Source: Candidatus Nealsonbacteria bacterium
GTDB taxonomy: Bacteria > Patescibacteriota > Minisyncoccia > Minisyncoccales > PWPS01
Length of the DNA stretch: 64,000 nt
Assembly (NCBI GenBank): GCA_003557645.1
Contig: PWNV01000020.1
Location: 78,328 to 142,327, forward strand
Direction of reading: 5' to 3'
The notes under the pieces were generated by a model that saw only the letters and a list, made by a program, of their open reading frames with translations, searched no databases and was not told the origin of the DNA. Shown one piece after another: positions 10,717 through 46,002 of the stretch. Numbering within the stretch: the first letter of the stretch is position 1; every line of letters begins with the position of its first letter. The translations under genes were made by a program, and so were the position numbers.

Positions 10717-10839
10717 GGTACAAAATAACTTTTCGAATGTATTTATTTATACAATAAAAAGGAGTATAGTCAATAATTGCCTTTGACAAGAGATCTTTTT
10801 TCATTATAATACAGTACAATTTTAAAGGGAGGTTTTAGA

Positions 10840-11115
10840 ATGTACACTGTAGAAGGTTATATTATACCAAAGGAAGAAGGTTATTTTTCTATTGAAATGC
10901 CAAAACAATCAATACTACTATCTGTGCGAGAGGTACAATATGGATTCCCCTGTCTTTTTGCGTTTGTAAATCACGAAGCGTCCAAGGAGAGAAGAAATTT
11001 TTTGCATGTTGCTACCGGAACTATTATTGAAGAAAATCCTTCTAACTTAAATTGTATTGGTACGTTTCATCTTAAAATCAGTAACCATGTGGGACATATT
11101 TTTGAGATTGAGTAA
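10840..11115 (+). CDS. hypothetical small protein
   Basis: 91 aa with SD gggagg 8 nt upstream. The pattern ...ILSV..Q.G...LFAFV......R.F.....G......IGTF......HIFEI recalls small beta-proteins often seen in prophage regions. That link is from memory only. Confidence 0.4.
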   Translation: MYTVEGYIIPKEEGYFSIEMPKQSILLSVREVQYGFPCLFAFVNHEASKERRNFLHVATGTIIEENPSNLNCIGTFHLKISNHVGHIFEIE

Positions 11116-20431: not shown

Positions 20432-21097
20432 TTATAATCCACGTCCTTTTCCTTTCCTTGCTCTACGTGATAGTTCATCACGAAGTTCTTCTGCAACCTT
20501 CTCAGAGAGACCAGGCAAAAGGCCTTCTGCGCCTGCGCTTCCGGAACCCCCTGTCCCGGCAGTAAATATCTTCAAGCTTGAAAGTCCTAATATGCGATCT
20601 ATTATTCCTCGCTGAACATTGATGTTCTGAATTCTTTCGTAGGGAATGGTTGTGTATTTTTTAGCTATAACTCCATACTCTTTACGAAAATCTTCTTCTG
20701 CAAGCTCATAACGATAATATTTATAGGCTAACTTCGCCCAGATGTAAGAAAGCAACAAGAGAACTAAAATAAAAATCAGTGAAATAGTTGGAACTCCGAT
20801 TTCTGCTGCACTTAAAACTGGGCCAAGCCATAAAAATAGAAAAAACAAACCGACGATGACAGACATCACAGAGGAAAAGAAAAAAACCCACGTTGCTTTT
20901 GGATCAAGTTGTTTTAATCCGGTAGAAGAAAATGGTGTGCTCGGTGGAGGTGGCGGTGCTTGATCAAAAATTCCAAGCGCTTCGTTAACATCATTCTCTT
21001 TCCATCCTGCGTTCAGAAGGCTATTCTTTATCTCCTCTTTGCTTTTTCCTTTTTCTGTTTGATTTTTAATATAATCTGATAGTTGTTGATTGCTCAT
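20432..21097 (-). CDS. membrane protein with bacterial PH (YdbS/bPH_2-like) domain, tandem paralog 1
   Basis: Small N-terminal helical domain (SDYIKNQ..GKSKEEIKNSLL.AGW), a poly-Pro linker and two TM helices. The C-terminal YRYELAEEDF...TIPYERIQN..VQRGI..R.LGLS segment is typical of bPH_2. Confidence 0.7.
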   Translation of the reverse strand: MSNQQLSDYIKNQTEKGKSKEEIKNSLLNAGWKENDVNEALGIFDQAPPPPPSTPFSSTGLKQLDPKATWVFFFSSVMSVIVGLFFLFLWLGPVLSAAEIGVPTISLIFILVLLLLSYIWAKLAYKYYRYELAEEDFRKEYGVIAKKYTTIPYERIQNINVQRGIIDRILGLSSLKIFTAGTGGSGSAGAEGLLPGLSEKVAEELRDELSRRARKGKGRGL

Positions 21098-21106
21098 ATT
21101 AATTTT

Positions 21107-21787
21107 TTAATTATTTTTTAAATACCTTGATCTATATGTTAACTCATCACGAAGCTCCTCTGCCTCTCTTCGAGAGACTCCAAGCAGTAATCCTTCTGCA
21201 CCATCCATTCCAGAACCTCCTGTTCCAGCCGTGAATATTTTTAAGCTTGAAAGTCCTAAAATACGATCTAGGATACCTCGTTGAATACTGATATTCTGTA
21301 TACGCTCATATGGAATAGTCGTGTATTTTTTGAAAACAACTCCTAACTCTTTACGAAAATCTTCTTCTGCAAGCTCATAACGATAATATTTATAAGTCAG
21401 TTTTGCCCAAACATAAGAAAAAGGTAATCCCAAGAGCAATATAGCTACAGAAAACATTAGCAACGCCTCCATATTCAAATCATGAACTGCCGTCGGATCA
21501 AGTAAGGGAATTATTATCATTAGAACAGGGAAAAAAAGTATAACTATAAAAGGAATTATAAACCTTAAGAAGAAAGCCCAAATTACTTTTGGATCAAGTT
21601 GTTTTAATCCGGTAGAAGAAAATGGTGTGCTCGGAGGAGGTGGCGGTGCTTGATCAAAAATTCCAAGCACTTCGTTAACGTCATTCTCTTTCCATCCTGC
21701 TTCCAGAAGGCTATTCTTTATCTCTTCTTTTCTTTTCCCTTTTTCTATTTGATTTTTAATATAATCTGACAGTTGTTGATTAATCAT
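21107..21787 (-). CDS. membrane protein with bacterial PH domain, tandem paralog 2
   Basis: Same architecture as 20432..21097. Long stretches of the N-terminal coding region are nearly identical at the nucleotide level. Confidence 0.7.
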   Translation of the reverse strand: MINQQLSDYIKNQIEKGKRKEEIKNSLLEAGWKENDVNEVLGIFDQAPPPPPSTPFSSTGLKQLDPKVIWAFFLRFIIPFIVILFFPVLMIIIPLLDPTAVHDLNMEALLMFSVAILLLGLPFSYVWAKLTYKYYRYELAEEDFRKELGVVFKKYTTIPYERIQNISIQRGILDRILGLSSLKIFTAGTGGSGMDGAEGLLLGVSRREAEELRDELTYRSRYLKNN

Positions 21788-22479: not shown

Positions 22480-22495
22480 TATTTAATTTTGTTAT

Positions 22496-23236
22496 TCATT
22501 TTTTTTCCATAACTGCAATATATCGAGGACCCTCCTTTTCATCAATAAACTCTTTAATCCTCCACCCAGTATCTTTTAAGATATTTTTCATTTCACTCTT
22601 GGAGGCAAGGAGATAATCAAACCAATCTCCTGTATAATTTTTAAACCTTATTCTTATACGATTCTGTCCAACCATTCTTCCTCTCTCTTTGTTCTTTCTA
22701 TGATATGCAAGATGTGCAGGATTCTTAGTATCATATGGATTCGTAGTTTCTGCAATAATCAAAGCGCTGTCAGTCGTAATTCTATATAATTTCTTAAGCA
22801 ACCTTTTCGCCTTTTTAAAGTTACCAAAAAGACCAAAATTGTTACCAAACATAAAAACGGTATCAAAAGACTTCTCTTTAAAATAGTCAACATCTTCAAT
22901 AGCAAGTACTTTTGCCTTCTTTACTCCTCTCTCCTTGCAAACTTTAATTGCTAGTGGTGAGTTATCAATAGAAGTTACACTAAATTTTTTTTGTTGAAGA
23001 TAAAGGGCAAGTCTTCCTGCTCCAGCACCAATATCAAGAACTTCTCCTTTCGCTTTCTTTACCGCCTTTTTTTGAATATCCGGCCACTCTCTATAGTCGC
23101 TGAAATATAAGGCTGGTGCATTTACGGAAATATCAAGAAAGCCATCATCCCTTTCAACAGCTTCATAGGCATCTTCTTTTTTCAGGAAAACCATTAACTC
23201 TTGCCCATAAGCATCTTTGTTTTTATCCATTTCCAT
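22496..23236 (-). CDS. class I SAM-dependent methyltransferase
   Basis: Motif I VLDIGAGAGRLALYL, followed by SIDNSP. Confidence 0.8.
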   Translation of the reverse strand: MEMDKNKDAYGQELMVFLKKEDAYEAVERDDGFLDISVNAPALYFSDYREWPDIQKKAVKKAKGEVLDIGAGAGRLALYLQQKKFSVTSIDNSPLAIKVCKERGVKKAKVLAIEDVDYFKEKSFDTVFMFGNNFGLFGNFKKAKRLLKKLYRITTDSALIIAETTNPYDTKNPAHLAYHRKNKERGRMVGQNRIRIRFKNYTGDWFDYLLASKSEMKNILKDTGWRIKEFIDEKEGPRYIAVMEKK

Positions 23237-23335
23237 TATTAACCTTTAATAAAAAGGTTGATTTATTTACTAATTAATTATTCTGCTGAATATATTATAA
23301 CAGAATTAATGGGATGCTGAAAAGTGAAGTTCAAT

Positions 23336-23363
23336 AAAAAAGCGGCTGTTGAGAGGTGCCGCT
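23336..23363 (-). terminator. rho-independent terminator closing the micro-ORF operon
   Basis: Stem agcggc/gccgct followed by U6 on the minus strand. Confidence 0.6.
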
Positions 23364-23397
23364 TGAACCTTTTTTTAAGAAAATGAACAAATGTGAT

Positions 23398-23565
23398 TTA
23401 GAGCAAATCATTTCTTCTCTGTCGCTCTATTCGTGCATATATATTTTTTTCATCTCTTTCTTTGATCTCTCTTGCAAACGCTTCGCTAAAAGCGTCGTCC
23501 TCTGAAAAATATTCTCCCCTTTCATGAGATTTTTCTGTCGGTTTATAATCTTTCTTCTTTTTCAC
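23398..23565 (-). CDS. micro-ORF, 55 aa, highly charged
   Basis: Below the ORF-track cutoff. GTG start 7 nt after aaaggaggagag. Translates to (M)KKKKDYKPTEKSHERGEYFSEDDAFSEAFAREIKERDEKNIYARIERQRRNDLL. Confidence 0.4.
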   Translation of the reverse strand: MKKKKDYKPTEKSHERGEYFSEDDAFSEAFAREIKERDEKNIYARIERQRRNDLL

Positions 23566-23592
23566 CTAATCTCTCCTCCTTTAAATAATCCT

Positions 23593-23646
23593 CTACCACT
23601 TCCACAATCCGCTGTACAAAAACAATTTTCCTAGAAATCTTTTCAC
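23593..23646 (-). CDS. micro-ORF, 17 aa, cationic amphipathic Trp-rich peptide
   Basis: GTG start 7 nt after aaaggagg. Translates to (M)KRFLGKLFLYSGLWKW. Ends about 12 nt before the SD of the next ORF. Confidence 0.25.
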   Translation of the reverse strand: MKRFLGKLFLYSGLWKW

Positions 23647-23722
23647 ACTGATTCCTCCTTTAAGTCTTTTGACTTAACTTCTAGAGCATCCCTTAATCTT
23701 CCTCAAAAATAATTTCAAAGAG

Positions 23723-23881
23723 CTAAAGAGCTTTTAAGTAGTTTTGCACTGCTTCTATTTTTGCTTTGTCTTTACTTCCAATAAGCGCGCTTACTATACG
23801 ATATTTTTCGCTAGACATCACACCCTTATCCTTTTTTTCTTTTAGCTTTTCTAGTAATTTTTGTTCCTTATTATTTTCCAA
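23723..23881 (-). CDS. micro-ORF, 52 aa, Lys-rich helical
   Basis: TTG start 6 nt after aaaggaggg. Translates to (M)ENNKEQKLLEKLKEKKDKGVMSSEKYRIVSALIGSKDKAKIEAVQNYLKAL. Confidence 0.35.
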   Translation of the reverse strand: MENNKEQKLLEKLKEKKDKGVMSSEKYRIVSALIGSKDKAKIEAVQNYLKAL

Positions 23882-24028
23882 AACAAACCCTCCTTTCAAA
23901 GTTTAAATTTTTAGAAAACCTAAAAAGTGCTTATATTCTAAAATATTTTAATTGTTTTGTAAAATTTAAGAAAAATATTATAAGATAAGCATGACGCTCT
24001 ATACTGGTAAATTCCGAGTTTCTCTTCC

Positions 24029-24056
24029 TTGACATTCTGAAAGAAAGATTTACAAT
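24029..24056 (+). promoter_or_regulatory. near-consensus sigma70-type promoter
   Basis: TTGACA (24029-24034), 16-nt spacer, TACAAT (24051-24056). No annotated plus-strand gene lies downstream, only the hairpin-rich region. Confidence 0.4.
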
Positions 24057-24062
24057 AGAGAA

Positions 24063-24400
24063 AAACTTTTGAAATTACTATGAAAGAAAAAATTAATCAA
24101 TCGTTATCTATCGTCGTAGTAGTCCTCCTTTTAAGGAGGGGGGCTTTGTTTTTCTAACCACTCAAGAGAGTGAACAAAAACAAACCCTCCCTAAAAACTT
24201 AGGGAGGTTTTTAATTGCCCCCGTGCCAAAGAAAAAATCTTTTTTGGTACGGGGGGAATAAGGGAAGAAATCCTTACCAGGATACCGGTCAAACTCCTTG
24301 CGAGAAAACCTCCAAATTGAGTTACCGGGACTTCCTCCCTCCTCCCGTAACCAGATGGAGGGAAGCACAAAAAAGGCCCTTATTAAAAAGGGCTCTTTTT
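24063..24400. ncRNA. candidate structured RNA of unknown class (GC-rich multi-hairpin island)
   Basis: At least six stable hairpins lie in an otherwise AT-rich ORF-free region, e.g. 24124-24139, 24159-24172, 24182-24210, 24218-24256 (13 bp) and 24331-24366. A terminator-like hairpin sits at 24376-24400. The strand is unresolved. Confidence 0.4.
24080..24157 (+). CDS. possible 25-aa hydrophobic micro-ORF
   Basis: ATG..TAA encodes MKEKINQSLSIVVVVLLLRRGALFF, starting 17-18 nt after the predicted TSS. No SD is present, so it may not be translated. Confidence 0.2.
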   Translation: MKEKINQSLSIVVVVLLLRRGALFF

Positions 24401-24497
24401 ATACTAAAAAAACCTTATATATGTTTTTATTTTTGAAAGCGCCCCTTTAAAATGTAGAGATGTTAATTTAATTTTTTTAAAAAAAGAGCGTAAGTAT

Positions 24498-24866
24498 TTA
24501 GATACCACGCCCCAAGTAAAAGATCACAAAAGCAATTCCTGTTGTATTGATAATTACGGCCAACAAATAGTATGCATTAAATATATACAGCAACGTGAAA
24601 GAACTTAATTTGAAACTTCTCCCAAAAACAATAAAGGATTGCTTCTGGAGTCCAAAACGATAATAGAGATACACGCATATAGCAAGTGGCACTATAACTT
24701 TTACATATACCGCAAAATTTGACGATATTCCTCGGAAATGTTCTATTACCAAATTAAGTTCCTGTAAGTGATAATGCCTTATTCCAATCTCGGTTATTAT
24801 CATATCAGCAGCACTCAGAAAAACTAGCAACGTTGACAGTAATAGGAATTTTCTTTTTGCCATCAA
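24498..24866 (-). CDS. small membrane protein (DUF5658-like)
   Basis: 122 aa with four TM helices. N-terminal SAADMIITEIGI...ELN resembles DUF5658, recalled from memory. SD aaggagg lies upstream. Confidence 0.4.
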   Translation of the reverse strand: MMAKRKFLLLSTLLVFLSAADMIITEIGIRHYHLQELNLVIEHFRGISSNFAVYVKVIVPLAICVYLYYRFGLQKQSFIVFGRSFKLSSFTLLYIFNAYYLLAVIINTTGIAFVIFYLGRGI

Positions 24867-24950: not shown

Positions 24951-25268
24951 CTAAGAAATTTTTGCACCTGGAGCTATGTCTTTGTCCGGTACAAGGAGGG
25001 AAAGATCTTCTTCATCGACAGCAAGAAGCATTCCTTGACTCTCTAATCCAAATATCTTTCTAGGTTTTAAATTGTAAACAATAACTATATTCTTTCCTTC
25101 AAGCTCTTTGGGAATATAGCTTTCAGCAATTCCAGAAACAATTTGTCTTTTCTCTTCTCCCACATCTACTTCAATCTTCAAAAGTTTATCTGTTCCGTCC
25201 ACTTTTTCTGCTTTTAAGATCTTCGCTGCTCTTAAATCTACTTTTTTAAAATCATCAAAATTTATCAT
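24951..25268 (-). CDS. tRNA-binding domain protein (CsaA/EMAP-like)
   Basis: DFKKVDLRAAKILKAEKVDGTDKLLKIEVDVGEEKRQIVSGIA. Start taken at the internal Met (MINFDDF) to avoid overlap with Pif1; the ORF track extends to 25376. Confidence 0.8.
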   Translation of the reverse strand: MINFDDFKKVDLRAAKILKAEKVDGTDKLLKIEVDVGEEKRQIVSGIAESYIPKELEGKNIVIVYNLKPRKIFGLESQGMLLAVDEEDLSLLVPDKDIAPGAKIS

Positions 25269-25326
25269 TTTAAATATATTATCTTTATTAATTTTCAAAC
25301 TTGGGTTTTTAAAGTAGCGTGAAGCT

Positions 25327-26622
25327 TTACACTCCTCGCCTCTTTTCTTTAAGTGTTCGCCAAAACTCTTTCCCATCTTCTTCTGATGCTTTCTTGAAAG
25401 CCCTATCTATTTTGATAACCTCTTCATTTGCCTGAAGCGCTGTTTTATTTAATCCTATAAGACGTAAGCCTTCAAGTGAACGAATTCTTGAAAGAGCAAC
25501 ATATCCCATTCCCGGCTCAAAAGCCCTACTAAGATCAATCTCTGCAGCATCTAGTGTTGTTCCTTGGCTTTTATGCACCGTAACTGCCCACGCTAAGCGC
25601 AGTGGCAATTGCCTTACCTCTGCCTTCACCTCCCCCTCTTCTTCAATATTCCACTTTTCTTGCTCTACTTTCACGTACCTTCCTTTCTGTGTTCTTACAA
25701 CCGGCATTTCTTCCTGAAATCTTACAACACGTCCAAGAGTTCCATTAACATACCCTTTCTCTGGATTATTTTTAACAAACATCACCACTGCATCTTTTTT
25801 AAGCTCCAGTCTCTTTGGAGTAAGAAGATTTTTCTCTAAAGTGCTCGCTAGTCTTTCCGGCCCACTCTTTTTCATGTTAAAAACTTTTTGTTTGCCGGAA
25901 AGTTTTTCCAGTTCTCTGGCATTTATATTATCCACATTCACATTGTGAGTATAGAGTTTTGTAATCTCTTCTCCTTCTTTTATCTTAGCCATATATCGTC
26001 CCTTCAAAAGATTTATAACATCCTCATTCACTTCATTCTTCCTTATGGACTCTAAAACAAAAAGAAGATCCTTTTCCTTGTGTCGATGCTGCTCTGTAAG
26101 ATAACAAACTCTTAAATCTAATTCTCTCCATGCTCTGCCCTTATAGGCAAAACCTGTTCCCTGGGAGTAAAGATTGTGATCACTTTTTATCGGTGGAAGC
26201 TGAAAAAAATCACCACAAAGAATTACCTGCATTCCTCCAAAAGGTTCTTCACTTTTTAAAAAACTACGTATAATTTTGTCAGCTATATCAAGCTGATCCA
26301 AAGAAAGCATTGATATTTCATCAATAATGAGAACTCGAGTTTTCTCTAATTTCTTAATAAGGTAACTTTTTTTGAGGACACGATTAAGGTCACTAGAAGT
26401 AAGTTGATTTAAGACCCCCATGCCACTAAAGGAGTGAATCGTTACTCCCCCAATATGAGTTGCCGCAATTCCTGTAGAAGCGGTTATTCCAACTGAAACT
26501 CCTTTCTTTTTCAAAAAACTTATATAATCACTTAAAAGATGAGTTTTCCCTGAGCCTGCACACCCAGTAAGAAACACATTGTAACCCGCCTTTAAAATTT
26601 CAAAAGCTTCCTTTTGTTTCAT
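25327..26622 (-). CDS. Pif1/RecD-family SF1B DNA helicase
   Basis: Walker A GCAGSGKTHLL, motif II LIIDEISML, GDFFQLPP, and C-terminal TVHKSQGTTLD. Confidence 0.85.
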   Translation of the reverse strand: MKQKEAFEILKAGYNVFLTGCAGSGKTHLLSDYISFLKKKGVSVGITASTGIAATHIGGVTIHSFSGMGVLNQLTSSDLNRVLKKSYLIKKLEKTRVLIIDEISMLSLDQLDIADKIIRSFLKSEEPFGGMQVILCGDFFQLPPIKSDHNLYSQGTGFAYKGRAWRELDLRVCYLTEQHRHKEKDLLFVLESIRKNEVNEDVINLLKGRYMAKIKEGEEITKLYTHNVNVDNINARELEKLSGKQKVFNMKKSGPERLASTLEKNLLTPKRLELKKDAVVMFVKNNPEKGYVNGTLGRVVRFQEEMPVVRTQKGRYVKVEQEKWNIEEEGEVKAEVRQLPLRLAWAVTVHKSQGTTLDAAEIDLSRAFEPGMGYVALSRIRSLEGLRLIGLNKTALQANEEVIKIDRAFKKASEEDGKEFWRTLKEKRRGV

Positions 26623-30713: not shown

Positions 30714-31001
30714 GAATTAGATTTTTATAAATTCCTAAATCTCACAAACACACCCCAAGCACATAAACAATTCTAAACCTATTTTACTCAGAAATCAACT
30801 CCAAAAAATTACTTAATTTAATTAATTCTTTCTAAAAGAGTTCTTATTATTACAACACTCCGTTTTATTTTCTTTCATTTTACTGTTAAAGTCGTGAAGG
30901 CTGTGAACTAAAAATAGGGAGACCACAAATAATTACTAAAAAAAACACTAATTCCCTATATAGAAGACAACGAGCTAGTAGAAGCTACCCCCAAGCAAAA
31001 C

Positions 31002-31030
31002 AAAGCCCCTGGTTGAAAGCAGGGGTTTTG
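31002..31030 (-). terminator. terminator-like hairpin downstream of QueC-like A
   Basis: Stem cccctg/cagggg with an 8-nt loop, followed by a U-rich tract on the minus strand. Confidence 0.5.
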
Positions 31031-31048
31031 TAGATGTTTGTGCAAAGA

Positions 31049-31882
31049 CTAAGCATCATATTTTGTTCTGTCTTCTATTCCCGCCTTTTTAAATGCTTCT
31101 ATTCTGTTAACGCAAGCGGGGTAGCACTTCCCACAATGTTTTTCTTGATCTTTATAACAACTCCTTGTTTTTTCAATAGGAAGATTGTGTTTATCAGCCC
31201 ATCTCAAATAAACATCTTTCCCATAAAAATTATTATACTCCCTCTCTATAGGAAGGCATATCACTTGCCAAGAATAATCGCCCATAATCTGACAAATTAA
31301 TAGATTTAAAATCCTCATGGATGTAAGAGTTGAGTGTCTCGGTGGATCTTCTTTCATGCAAGAAATAAAAACTGTCTTTGGGAAAACTTTTTTTGATTGA
31401 AGAGAGTAAGCATATTCTGCTGCTGTTAATATTATTGCTGGATTTCTAGCAGGATAAGCTATTCTCGTTCTTGACTCTATTCCGTCCCCTAAATTTTTTA
31501 CACTCCTTAACATGTCCTTGTATTCAGAGGCAGGAGTCGGTACTTGAATTTCAATAGTTTTATTAAACAGTTCAGGATATTTCTTCGAAAAGTAATCATC
31601 AAAATAATTTACAGCTTCTCTTTCATACTTTAAATTGCTCTGATCTCTATTTATAAAAGCAGGATAAACACTAAGCTTAAAATCCTCTAAGAGAATAGCA
31701 ATATTGGTTGTAGAATCCATTCCTCCAGAGTGAACTGCAACAACCGGAGACCCGGGTTTGGGAATTTTTGCAACATTTAATCTTCTCCTCTTTATTATCC
31801 CGTCAATATCCTTTAGAACACTCGGATCCTCTTGTCTTTTCTTCTCTAAACCAAAAGTATTAGTGTTTATTATCTTCGTCAT
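31049..31882 (-). CDS. QueC-like PP-loop ATPase, paralog A
   Basis: PP-loop HSGGMDSTT, YPARNP segment, and a C-terminal Zn-type cluster SCYKDQEKHCGKCYPAC. A ~40-aa N-terminal extension precedes the PP-loop. Overlaps the upstream TS-like gene by 23 nt. Confidence 0.75.
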   Translation of the reverse strand: MTKIINTNTFGLEKKRQEDPSVLKDIDGIIKRRRLNVAKIPKPGSPVVAVHSGGMDSTTNIAILLEDFKLSVYPAFINRDQSNLKYEREAVNYFDDYFSKKYPELFNKTIEIQVPTPASEYKDMLRSVKNLGDGIESRTRIAYPARNPAIILTAAEYAYSLQSKKVFPKTVFISCMKEDPPRHSTLTSMRILNLLICQIMGDYSWQVICLPIEREYNNFYGKDVYLRWADKHNLPIEKTRSCYKDQEKHCGKCYPACVNRIEAFKKAGIEDRTKYDA

Positions 31883-44726: not shown

Positions 44727-44806
44727 AACAAAAACCCGAGGAATATCTCGAGATTGTTATTAGAAAAAAAATAGAAAGGGCTGCCCGGATGGGACAATTT
44801 CCGAAC
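44727..44806. repeat. direct repeat copy A (degenerate tRNA-Gln 3' end plus downstream flank)
   Basis: Aligns with 45928..46002 at about 85% identity. The block ttgttattagaaaaaaaatagaaag is identical at an offset of exactly 1200 nt. The tRNA-derived part carries a 5-nt insertion. Confidence 0.75.
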
Positions 44807-45026: not shown

Positions 45027-45860
45027 TTATAAGTCCCGGAGACAACGAACCGAAAAGCCGAACTCCTGACCGCGGGTATCGCGATAGACGGTAGAGAAAC
45101 CGGAAAGATGGTACCGGTAGTAACTACTCCAGGGACGGGAATCAACTTCGGAGGAAGACCAAAAATTGGCGAACGAACCGAGATAGTAGAAATTGCCGTA
45201 AGTGTCCCGGAAGCCACCTGGGAGAGCAGAAAAGTCGTAGTTATCCGTTCCGGTGTTCATGTCCCACAAGGCAGTGTTTGCTTTTAGTATTGTTCCAGCA
45301 GGTGAGCAGCCCCAATTATTTCTTGTATCACTACAGTTATCAGTTGCAAGATAGTCTTCCAGTGTGTGCCACTCTTCATCTGTTGGCAGATGCCAACCTA
45401 TTGGACAGGAATTGTCTGCTGCTAGATGGTTGTAAAGAACACCGTAGGTTTGGTAGTTACTGGTTGCTTTAGCTGCTTCTACATCTGTGCCATCGTATCC
45501 GTAAACATAGTAATACTTGGTTGCTGTGTCTCCCGTAGCAGGTCCTACTACTTCTGGAAGGTAGGCTAGGTTTTCTGACATCCAACATTGATTACCTATC
45601 TTTGTCGTAGAATAAGTTTGGTTGTCTCTTTCATCTATAAAATCATCTCCACAAGACCACTCTTCGTCAACAACCGGCTCATCTATTTCCGGTTCTTCGG
45701 TTTCTACTGCATCCTCATCAATAACCGGCTCATCCACCTCCGGTTCTTCGTTTTCTACTACATCTTCTACCGGCTCCGGACTTTGGAGTGCCAAAGCAAC
45801 AAGACTTCCTAATACGACAACTCCCAAGAAAATTAAAAATATTTTTAAGTTTTTAGTCAT
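45027..45860 (-). CDS. FISUMP (Fibrobacter succinogenes major paralogous) domain protein
   Basis: TM anchor and an acidic tandem repeat. Then FIDERDNQTY...IGNQCWMSENL...GWHLPTDEEW...FSALPGG...FWSS...GFSVRCL. Local GC is much higher than the surroundings: 35/60 in 45041-45100 versus 19/60 in 44101-44160. Confidence 0.8.
   Translation of the reverse strand: MTKNLKIFLIFLGVVVLGSLVALALQSPEPVEDVVENEEPEVDEPVIDEDAVETEEPEIDEPVVDEEWSCGDDFIDERDNQTYSTTKIGNQCWMSENLAYLPEVVGPATGDTATKYYYVYGYDGTDVEAAKATSNYQTYGVLYNHLAADNSCPIGWHLPTDEEWHTLEDYLATDNCSDTRNNWGCSPAGTILKANTALWDMNTGTDNYDFSALPGGFRDTYGNFYYLGSFANFWSSSEVDSRPWSSYYRYHLSGFSTVYRDTRGQEFGFSVRCLRDL
45668..45769. repeat. 2 x 51-nt tandem repeat inside the FISUMP gene
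   Basis: Units start at 45668 and 45719. They encode EEPEVDEPVIDEDAVET / EEPEIDEPVVDEE. Confidence 0.7.
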
Positions 45861-45927: not shown

Positions 45928-46002
45928 AACAAAAACCCGAGAAGTCCTCGGGGTTGTTATTAGAAAAAAAATAGAAAGAGCTGCCGGGATAGGACTCGAA
46001 CC
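45928..46002. repeat. direct repeat copy B (includes the genuine 3' end of tRNA-Gln and its terminator)
   Basis: Partner of 44727..44806. Confidence 0.75.

Follow-up and report, generated by a model that had tools for sequence, protein, structure and literature searches.

The window analysed here, a 64-kb stretch of DNA with a G+C content of 35.0% (mean 0.350), comes from an uncultured soda-lake bacterium of the Patescibacteria or Candidate Phyla Radiation (CPR). On its plus strand, between positions 24029 and 24400, it carries a promoter-like sequence, a 25-codon open reading frame (ORF), a G+C-rich island of hairpins and a terminator. We tentatively read this unit as a leader-peptide attenuator that would sense valine, isoleucine and leucine and gate a structured non-coding RNA, a reading to which we give a probability of about 0.4. 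A first-pass annotation of the sequence had described a single RNA of no known class. No known family was found, but the 5' half of the unit (micro-ORF and hairpins H1, H2 and H3) has the anatomy of a leader attenuator, whose parts that annotation had listed without connecting them.

A putative leader reading frame on overlapping hairpins

The leader ORF (MKEKINQSLSIVVVVLLLRRGALFF; feature coordinates are collected in Table 1) holds a run of putative control codons, Ile-Val4-Leu3 (IVVVVLLL, 24110-24133), and this run sits on the 5' arm of hairpin H1. Such runs are rare. Across the 128,000 codon positions of the window's six frames, VVVV occurs once and runs of eight or more Ile, Leu or Val residues occur three times, the leader being one of the three. 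In fact, only one of 1,876 small ATG-started ORFs (window plus 17 loci, 207 kb) has such a run, and it is the leader. Its start region is A/U-rich and has no Shine-Dalgarno (SD) sequence, as is the case for most genes of this genome, and 17 of 18 bases are identical to the start of gene 46967. The missing SD is therefore no argument against translation of the leader, which we infer, because this is the genome's usual start context.

The transcript contains four regions that can pair as 1:2, 2:3 or 3:4, and these pairings overlap and are mutually exclusive. The 1:2 pairing is hairpin H1, which is followed by a U-tract of its own (UUGUUUUUC) and is specific to the plus strand; it would act as a pause site or as a first terminator. 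The 2:3 pairing encloses the small hairpin H2 and would be the antiterminator. The 3:4 pairing is hairpin H3, a G+C stem with a U-run behind it (UUUUUAAUU) and the shape of a terminator; an upstream A-tract gives it that shape on the minus strand too.

Constraint folds show how a ribosome on the leader could choose between these pairings. In the free RNA, H1 and H3 form (-39.3 kcal/mol). A mask over 24110-24134, which mimics a ribosome stalled on the Ile/Val/Leu codons, lets the 2:3 pairing form; the G+C stem of H3 is gone and its U-run is taken into a weak A-U hairpin (-28.9 kcal/mol). Extending the mask to 24110-24170 mimics a ribosome at the stop codon, and terminator H3 is then the sole hairpin to remain. 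As thermodynamic models, the folds reproduce ribosome-mediated attenuation of the ilv/trp type. The Val and Ile codons are best placed as control codons, because a ribosome stalled on Leu already covers part of region 2.

In the mechanism that we propose, RNA polymerase would pause or stop at the 1:2 hairpin until a ribosome translates the leader. With ample charged Val/Ile (and perhaps Leu) tRNA, the ribosome would reach the stop codon at 24155 and cover region 2, the 3:4 pairing would form and transcription would end near 24216, leaving a leader RNA of about 150 nucleotides (nt). With charged tRNAs scarce, the ribosome would stall on the Val codons and cover region 1; regions 2 and 3 would then pair, the terminator would be blocked and the polymerase would read on into a 185-nt RNA body. 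Most likely, that body would serve as a trans-acting regulatory RNA or put the convergent operon under controlled antisense pressure.

The regulation of amino-acid biosynthesis by leader-peptide attenuators is textbook knowledge, with E. coli ilvL, ivbL and leuL as branched-chain examples, and the canonical attenuator precedes the genes for the amino acid that it senses. Like the branched-chain attenuators, our unit has a short ORF a few bases past the predicted transcript start, an Ile/Val/Leu run on the first arm of 1:2, a predicted terminated leader of similar length and overlapping hairpins that correspond to anti-antiterminator, antiterminator and terminator. Thus, a promoter before a small ORF (as a consensus match only), a run of control codons, exclusive hairpins and a fitting ribosome-mask geometry are found together. 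The peptide logic is shared with the experimentally dissected three-hairpin attenuator of the Corynebacterium glutamicum ilvBNC operon, whose leader peptide IlvL is MTIIRLVVVTARRLP (PMC11857589). A leucine-rich attenuator peptide is also described in Staphylococcus aureus (PMC5794164), and leaders have been surveyed across actinobacteria (PMC1262725). Unlike the branched-chain attenuators, the unit is followed by a structured RNA instead of a biosynthetic, transport or tRNA-synthetase gene, its 1:2 hairpin has its own U-tract and its host is a CPR bacterium.

Several points weigh against an attenuator. Its defining companion, a gene further along the transcript whose function relates to the sensed amino acid, is missing: no gene-like plus-strand ORF lies before terminator T or for 8 kb beyond it, the other two frames included. 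To our knowledge, CPR bacteria generally lack branched-chain amino-acid synthesis. The codon score of the leader is not gene-like, 25 codons being too few to judge. The promoter had been annotated as near-consensus and does score 11/12, but such a match is within chance expectation (6 matches of at least 11/12 in the window vs 4.3 +/- 2.0 in shuffles) and what weight it has comes from standing immediately before the structured unit. The 2:3 complementarity may be a by-product of inverted copies of a terminator module, described below. Hairpin H7 and the central junction domain of the body gain 9.1 and 6.2 kcal/mol in stability on the minus strand. The island has no homologue in any collection searched, and its interpretation rests on one sequence. 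Finally, the U-tract of H1 could simply end a 90-nt RNA.

This last point belongs to an alternative that we hold to be rather unlikely, in which the locus encodes a plain, lineage-specific small RNA (sRNA) without translational control: an RNA of about 90 nt would end at H1, H3 and T would be back-up terminators that protect the convergent operon, and the micro-ORF would be incidental. Terminator-like sites are in fact enriched here (7 in 2 kb vs 1.1 expected), and the promoter is followed by three plus-strand terminator-like hairpins in series, of which H1 is itself a competent terminator (-14.3 kcal/mol, U-tract). The missing cargo gene fits as well, and at this locus relatives have another unit of promoter, hairpin and terminator, which means that such units turn over. 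A plain sRNA leaves unexplained, however, why a unique in-frame Val4 run lies exactly on region 1, why the stop codon lies exactly past region 2 and why a structured body of 160 nt without a promoter of its own stands between H3 and T.

Folding, coding potential and strand of the island

The island differs sharply from its surroundings, with a G+C fraction of 0.41-0.52 (100-nt windows, 24100-24399) vs 0.19-0.28 in both flanks. The plus strand of 24060-24405 folds at -128.1 kcal/mol vs -84.0 +/- 4.5 for its shuffles (z = -9.75), and the minus strand at -124.7 kcal/mol (z = -6.08). When the whole window was scanned in 120-nt sliding folds, the four windows covering the island were the lowest on both strands, and three of them reached -43.8 to -50.4 kcal/mol on the plus strand vs a scan mean of -15.5 (sd 6.4). 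The island (24120-24400) is in fact the stablest fold of the 64 kb and beats the RNase P RNA and the tRNAs. Hairpins of the form CCTCC...GGAGG match seven times in the window, where 0.2 are expected; five of these matches, making up three hairpins, lie inside the island, and none was found in the 16 related or unrelated loci fetched. Every feature and hairpin listed in the first-pass annotation of this G+C-rich island is present, its stem plus T-run at the island's end is the bidirectional terminator T, and folds, composition and signals all support the non-coding, strongly structured unit with plus-strand promoter and terminator that it had outlined.

The body between H3 and T is very stable and consists of a 16-base-pair (bp) hairpin (H4), a three-way junction and a CCUCC/GGAGG hairpin (H7). 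H4 has a U-tract on neither strand. It had been annotated as a 13-bp stem; the hairpin is there, and the stem extends to 16 bp with two G.U pairs on the plus strand.

Six CCUCC tracts crowd into 250 nt of the plus strand, and almost all are paired: four have an unpaired probability of 0-0.03, one has 0.21 and the one at 24341 has 0.37-0.39. This pairing argues against a simple SD-sponge role. C-rich sRNAs that target SD sequences, of the RsaE/RoxS type, are found in Gram-positive bacteria, and the island resembles them in its CCUCC tracts and in the use of AAAGGAGG as ribosome-binding site by a subset of genes that includes the four neighbours. Unlike them, it keeps its tracts mostly paired, matches nothing in Rfam and forms predicted duplexes that are not specific to the neighbour genes (RNAduplex gave unrealistically long loops, and these predictions carry little weight). 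On these grounds, an anti-SD sponge or SD-targeting sRNA was rejected.

Could the island encode a protein? We find this hard to credit, whether the product is the 25-residue peptide, as a type I toxin-like or small membrane peptide, or a 73-residue one (24215-24436), as an orphan gene that the attenuator would control. The micro-ORF does have a typical start context and was listed by the gene caller of IMG; the longer ORF has GGGAGG, 7 nt and then TTG, as do the real SD-led genes of this genome. Ibs/Sib, TisB/IstR and Fst/RNAII are type I toxin-antitoxin loci, and like them the island embeds a small hydrophobic ORF in a highly structured RNA. Unlike them, it has no segment of transmembrane length, no signal for an antisense or divergent antitoxin, no repeats and no homologues. 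The hydrophobic core of the micro-ORF (LSIVVVVLLL, then RRG) spans 8-11 residues, too short for a membrane helix, its stop codon lies past the first U-tract, that of H1, and the minus strand of 24060-24400 has no promoter for an antitoxin RNA. We therefore consider the type I toxin, which had been offered as an alternative, a weak candidate. The two overlapping ORFs inside the hairpins, flagged early for atypical codons, have a non-genic composition and no homologues; the G+C fractions at the three codon positions (GC1/2/3) of the island ORFs run from about 0.40/0.45/0.40 to 0.46/0.51/0.44 vs 0.45/0.33/0.29 in real genes. For the 73-residue ORF, phmmer found no family among 1.84 billion representatives (two marginal matches are translated repeats), and there was no PHROGs or NCBIfam match. 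As a cargo gene it was rejected on its composition, its lack of homologues and its course across the 16-bp hairpin and terminator T.

Known RNA families are likewise missing. At gathering thresholds, Rfam 15 finds RNase P RNA and three tRNAs elsewhere in the window and nothing in 23200-24600, and ARAGORN finds no tRNA or tmRNA in the island region, in line with the annotation's own failure to match known RNAs. Permissive scans (E <= 10 over 23200-24600; E <= 5 over 24205-24410) gave sub-threshold matches only, on both strands, driven by hairpins and U-tracts, the best with 31 bits where 208 are needed. The families concerned were amino-acid leaders, sRNAs that contain a terminator, and hairpins of plant microRNAs; Phe_leader, His_leader and Thr_leader appeared below threshold on both strands. 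The unit bears no sequence similarity to any of the Rfam leader families.

The first-pass annotation had noted that strand evidence conflicts, and the conflict is real. H1 and H4 are better on the plus strand by 5 and 9.4 kcal/mol, their G.U pairs becoming A.C on the minus strand, and H7 and the central domain point the other way; H2, H3, H6 and T show no strand preference. As to signals, the plus strand is the favoured one: it has the sole good promoter and alone carries the U-tract of H1. It is very unlikely that the element belongs to the minus strand, as a structured 3' untranslated region of the DUF5658 operon or as a leader of the small-gene operon, with CCUCC tracts that would sequester GGAGG sites resembling ribosome-binding sites. 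Every gene flanking the island is on the minus strand, H7 and the central domain are stabler there, GUUUGUUUUUG follows H3 on that strand, the 3' arm of H3 looks like the 58-residue gene's ribosome-binding site, and the four adjacent genes are among the few with a strong SD. Yet minus-strand transcription would pass terminator T before it reached the island, and the island has no minus-strand promoter: promoter-like sites are lacking in 24060-24400 and in 24400-24500. The small-gene operon has its own promoter, downstream of the island, most GGAGG tracts have no start codon after them, and the wobble pairs of H1 and H4 are lost.

On the minus strand, 24335-24350 reads GGGAGGAGGGAGGAAG, a (GGA)n-like purine tract for which a two-tetrad G-quadruplex is possible in principle. 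It lies about 1 kb from a gene of the Pif1 helicase family and is probably incidental.

The locus in relatives and its possible origin

The island is an orphan. Its sole other copies are identical and come from the same organism (contig L010 and an IMG contig of 4,511 nt), with no strain variation between them; sequencing run SRR490128 yielded an identical contig. Beyond L010, nhmmer, blastn and tblastx against all fetched loci gave nothing; pattern scans of metagenomes and protein scans of genome collections found no island homologue, scans of viral collections gave one chance match inside a coding region, and blastn against phages and plasmids returned 27-43-nt noise only. Nine relatives of the Pif1 gene (L001-L009, 73-85% identity) share neither the downstream gene order nor the island. 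The DUF5658 protein is itself rare: among 5.8 billion proteins it has only itself and one 63%-identical cluster.

The loci of that cluster, L011-L014, show what stands in the island's place. They keep the pair of tRNA-binding and DUF5658 genes, their homology to the window ends exactly at the DUF5658 stop codon, and a different element and then a Pterin_4a gene follow. This element is a well-conserved unit on the other strand, that of the DUF5658 gene, about 100 nt upstream of the Pterin_4a gene. It comprises a promoter (TTGACA-17-(TG)TATTCT), a long hairpin whose interior varies and whose closing stem measures about 15 bp (CUAGAUGAAGGUCUCC... / ...GGGGGCCUUCAUCUA), a single-stranded CU-rich stretch (GCUCCUUUCUUUCAAAG) and a terminator. 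Nothing in Rfam matches this element, a candidate sRNA or leader of its own. Homology between it and the island was rejected, since a local alignment of the two scores no higher than shuffled sequences can. The first-pass annotation had named a lack of conservation in relatives as a refutation; the closest relatives have no island and carry an unrelated element instead, and a conserved structured RNA class fails by that test.

From DUF5658 to CYTH, the segment measures 2.0 kb here (methyltransferase, small genes and island) vs 4.1 kb with other genes in L012. The CYTH homologue returns 4 kb further on in L012, and therefore the whole segment has been exchanged. Upstream of the methyltransferase in its relatives L016 (76%) and L017 (73%), the small genes and the island are both missing.

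The locus also contains a repeated module. The 3' arm and tail of H1 on the plus strand and the 3' arm and tail of H3 on the minus strand are inverted copies of AGGAGGG..UUUGUUUUU, and a third copy is the ribosome-binding site of the 58-residue gene. In addition, the 24-nt repeat of Table 1 is the antisense of that gene's ribosome-binding site and start codon. Leader region 3 is in consequence complementary to the start region of the 58-residue gene's mRNA (14 nt exact, 20/24), which could be functional, as in the trans-acting rnTrpL, or mere paralogy.

A history of exchange invites an explanation that we regard as improbable, namely that the island has no dedicated RNA function: bidirectional terminators and palindromes would have been left at the junction of a recently exchanged segment, at most as a transcriptional insulator. 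Consistent with it are the replacement of the DUF5658-CYTH segment, the stop of homology at the DUF5658 stop codon and the methyltransferase relatives that lack small genes and island. The symmetry of H3 and T, wobble pairs that point to different strands in different hairpins, the AGGAGGG-UUUGUUUU module present three times and a weak 14-nt direct repeat at both segment edges agree with it too. Debris of this kind would hardly fold far better than the rest of the window, however, and three CCUCC/GGAGG hairpins vs 0.2 expected matches argue for selection on pairing. The lack of other copies in the window or the loci means that this is no repeat family, and the statistics of the leader ORF are left unexplained. 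A repeat or mobile element (REP/BIME, or a miniature inverted-repeat transposable element, MITE) was likewise rejected, there being no second copy in 64 kb (about a quarter of the source genome) or in 17 loci.

The edge repeat is AT-rich, reads ATTTAATTTT(G/T)TTA and lies at 22481-22494 and 24466-24479, slightly inward of either edge of the 2.0-kb segment. In AT-rich DNA, such a repeat may arise by chance.

What might an attenuator without a biosynthetic operon do? B12-riboswitch-controlled EutX/Rli55 and AspocR, from Enterococcus and Listeria, are sensor-gated non-coding RNAs (reviewed in PMC8079631), and like them the island has a conditional terminator before a non-coding RNA, not an ORF. 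Their sensor is a metabolite-binding riboswitch; unlike theirs, the sensor of the island would be a translating ribosome. In Sinorhizobium meliloti, the attenuator RNA rnTrpL and the leader peptide peTrpL act in trans (PMC7298713), a precedent for a terminated leader RNA or peptide as a functional product, although rnTrpL, unlike the island, still precedes trp genes. As a long shot, we envision that in a CPR bacterium that does not synthesize these amino acids the Ile-Val4-Leu3 leader would sense the supply of charged tRNA and switch on a trans-acting RNA, or antisense transcription into the convergent operon, and that body or leader might act on the mRNAs of the SD-led neighbours.

If the attenuator reading is true, a reduced CPR genome that depends on a host would have turned an amino-acid attenuator into a general starvation signal for riboregulation. 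We know of almost no regulatory RNAs described in Patescibacteria, and the island would then be one of very few leads on their regulation. If it is not an attenuator, the locus shows a fast turnover of small promoter-hairpin-terminator units in a variable CPR segment. In either case it carries a caution for scans: even when an AT-rich genome contains a striking GC-rich island of hairpins, that island need not represent a conserved RNA class.

Neighbouring genes and other features of the window

Table 1. Positions of the features discussed, numbered from the first letter of the window except where a locus is named; energies in kcal/mol
Feature	Position	Strand	Details
Sigma-70-like promoter	24029-24056	+	TTGACA-16-TACAAT; 11/12 consensus match; inferred transcript start ~24063
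Leader ORF, 25 codons	24080-24157	+	stop codon 24155-24157, just past region 2
Region 1	24121-24131	+	
Region 2	24133-24153	+	
Region 3	24176-24195	+	
Region 4	24199-24211	+	then U-run
Hairpin H1, 1:2 pairing	24121-24131 with 24135-24145	+	U-tract to 24154; -14.3 (+), -9.3 (-)
Terminator-like site H1	24121-24145	+ only	
Predicted antiterminator, 2:3 pairing	24137-24153 with 24176-24192	+	17-nt inverted repeat, 88% complementary
Hairpin H2	24159-24172	+	inside 2:3 pairing
Hairpin H3, 3:4 pairing (predicted terminator)	24186-24194 with 24199-24207	+	U-run to 24216; -14.6 / -15.2
Terminator-like site H3	24186-24207	both	
Hairpin H4	24214-24259; stem 24218-24233 with 24240-24255	+	16 bp, 6-nt loop, two G.U; -28.8 (+), -19.4 (-)
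Three-way junction	24263-24335; closed by 24263-24267 with 24331-24335	+	GGAAG/CUUCC; pairing probabilities high on both strands
Hairpin H5	24270-24283	+	inside three-way junction
Hairpin H6	24285-24328	+	inside three-way junction
Hairpin H7	24336-24363	+	triple CCUCC tract and GGAGGGA; -13.0 (+), -22.1 (-); longer 13-bp stem on minus
Intrinsic terminator T	24370-24400; stem region 24375-24394	both	A-tract, stem GGCCCUU/AAGGGCU, U-tract; -13.8 / -13.7
24-nt repeat	23880-23903	+	20/24 identical to 24177-24200, 14 nt exact
Pif1 helicase gene	25327-26622	-	
tRNA-binding-domain protein gene	24951-25376	-	
DUF5658 membrane protein gene	24498-24866	-	
Small-gene operon promoter	23963-23935	-	back-to-back with the island's plus-strand promoter
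58-residue small gene	23723-23899	-	strong AAAGGAGG ribosome-binding site
16-codon small ORF	start 23646	-	strong AAAGGAGG ribosome-binding site
55-residue small gene	23398-23565	-	strong AAAGGAGG ribosome-binding site
S-adenosylmethionine (SAM) methyltransferase gene	22496-23236	-	
CYTH protein gene	beyond methyltransferase	-	
Examples of genes with strong AAAGGAGG	24879, 23893, 23579, 10828, 41230, 41591, 43797, 53638, 54197, 56302, 59196		
Element in relatives	L012 5326-5614; L011 772-1058; L013 2507-2748; L014 3352-3641		

Terminator T is common to the island and to the convergent operon of DUF5658, tRNA-binding and Pif1 genes. The names attached to homologues of the Pif1 helicase are those of Patescibacteria, Paceibacterota and Minisyncoccia; the samples are soda-lake sediments. 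On the other side of the island, a stretch of 1.26 kb had been annotated as holding no ORF of 60 residues or more outside the hairpins; the real gap runs from about 23900 to 24497, and the remainder holds three small minus-strand genes in 23398-23899, with gene-like codon usage and GC1>GC2>GC3.

SD use is patchy across the window. The start regions of most genes are A/U-rich and have no SD, and strong AAAGGAGG sites precede about a dozen genes. Many of these genes are small, and TTG or GTG starts are common among them; all four genes adjoining the island are in this group. The frequent lack of an SD fits the reported absence of the anti-SD motif in about half of Parcubacteria (PMC9297842).

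Other features of the window lie further from the island. The sole perfect (12/12) plus-strand promoter match of the window (10783-10810) stands directly before an SD-led DUF7352 gene (10840-11115), and a DUF7352 gene also adjoins Pif1 in relatives L008 and L009. At 20432-21097 and 21107-21787 are tandem paralogues, with DNA blocks 76-90% identical, whose products are proline-rich bPH_2 (bacterial PH domain) proteins that span the membrane. A direct repeat of 65 nt with 82% identity (44731-44795 and 45931-45995), includes the last 16 nt of tRNA-Gln and its terminator and brackets a 1.2-kb segment with a Fib_succ_major-domain gene (45027-45860); the pair looks like an att-type duplication from insertion at the 3' end of a tRNA, or a decayed tRNA duplicate. 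Finally, 30714-31048 is another intergenic region that folds strongly (plus strand, -43 kcal/mol per 120 nt), without an Rfam match at gathering, in which a long-range pairing ATAGAAGACA...TGTCTTCTAT surrounds a terminator-like hairpin; it adjoins a minus-strand gene (31049-31882) with a match to the QueC domain of queuosine biosynthesis.

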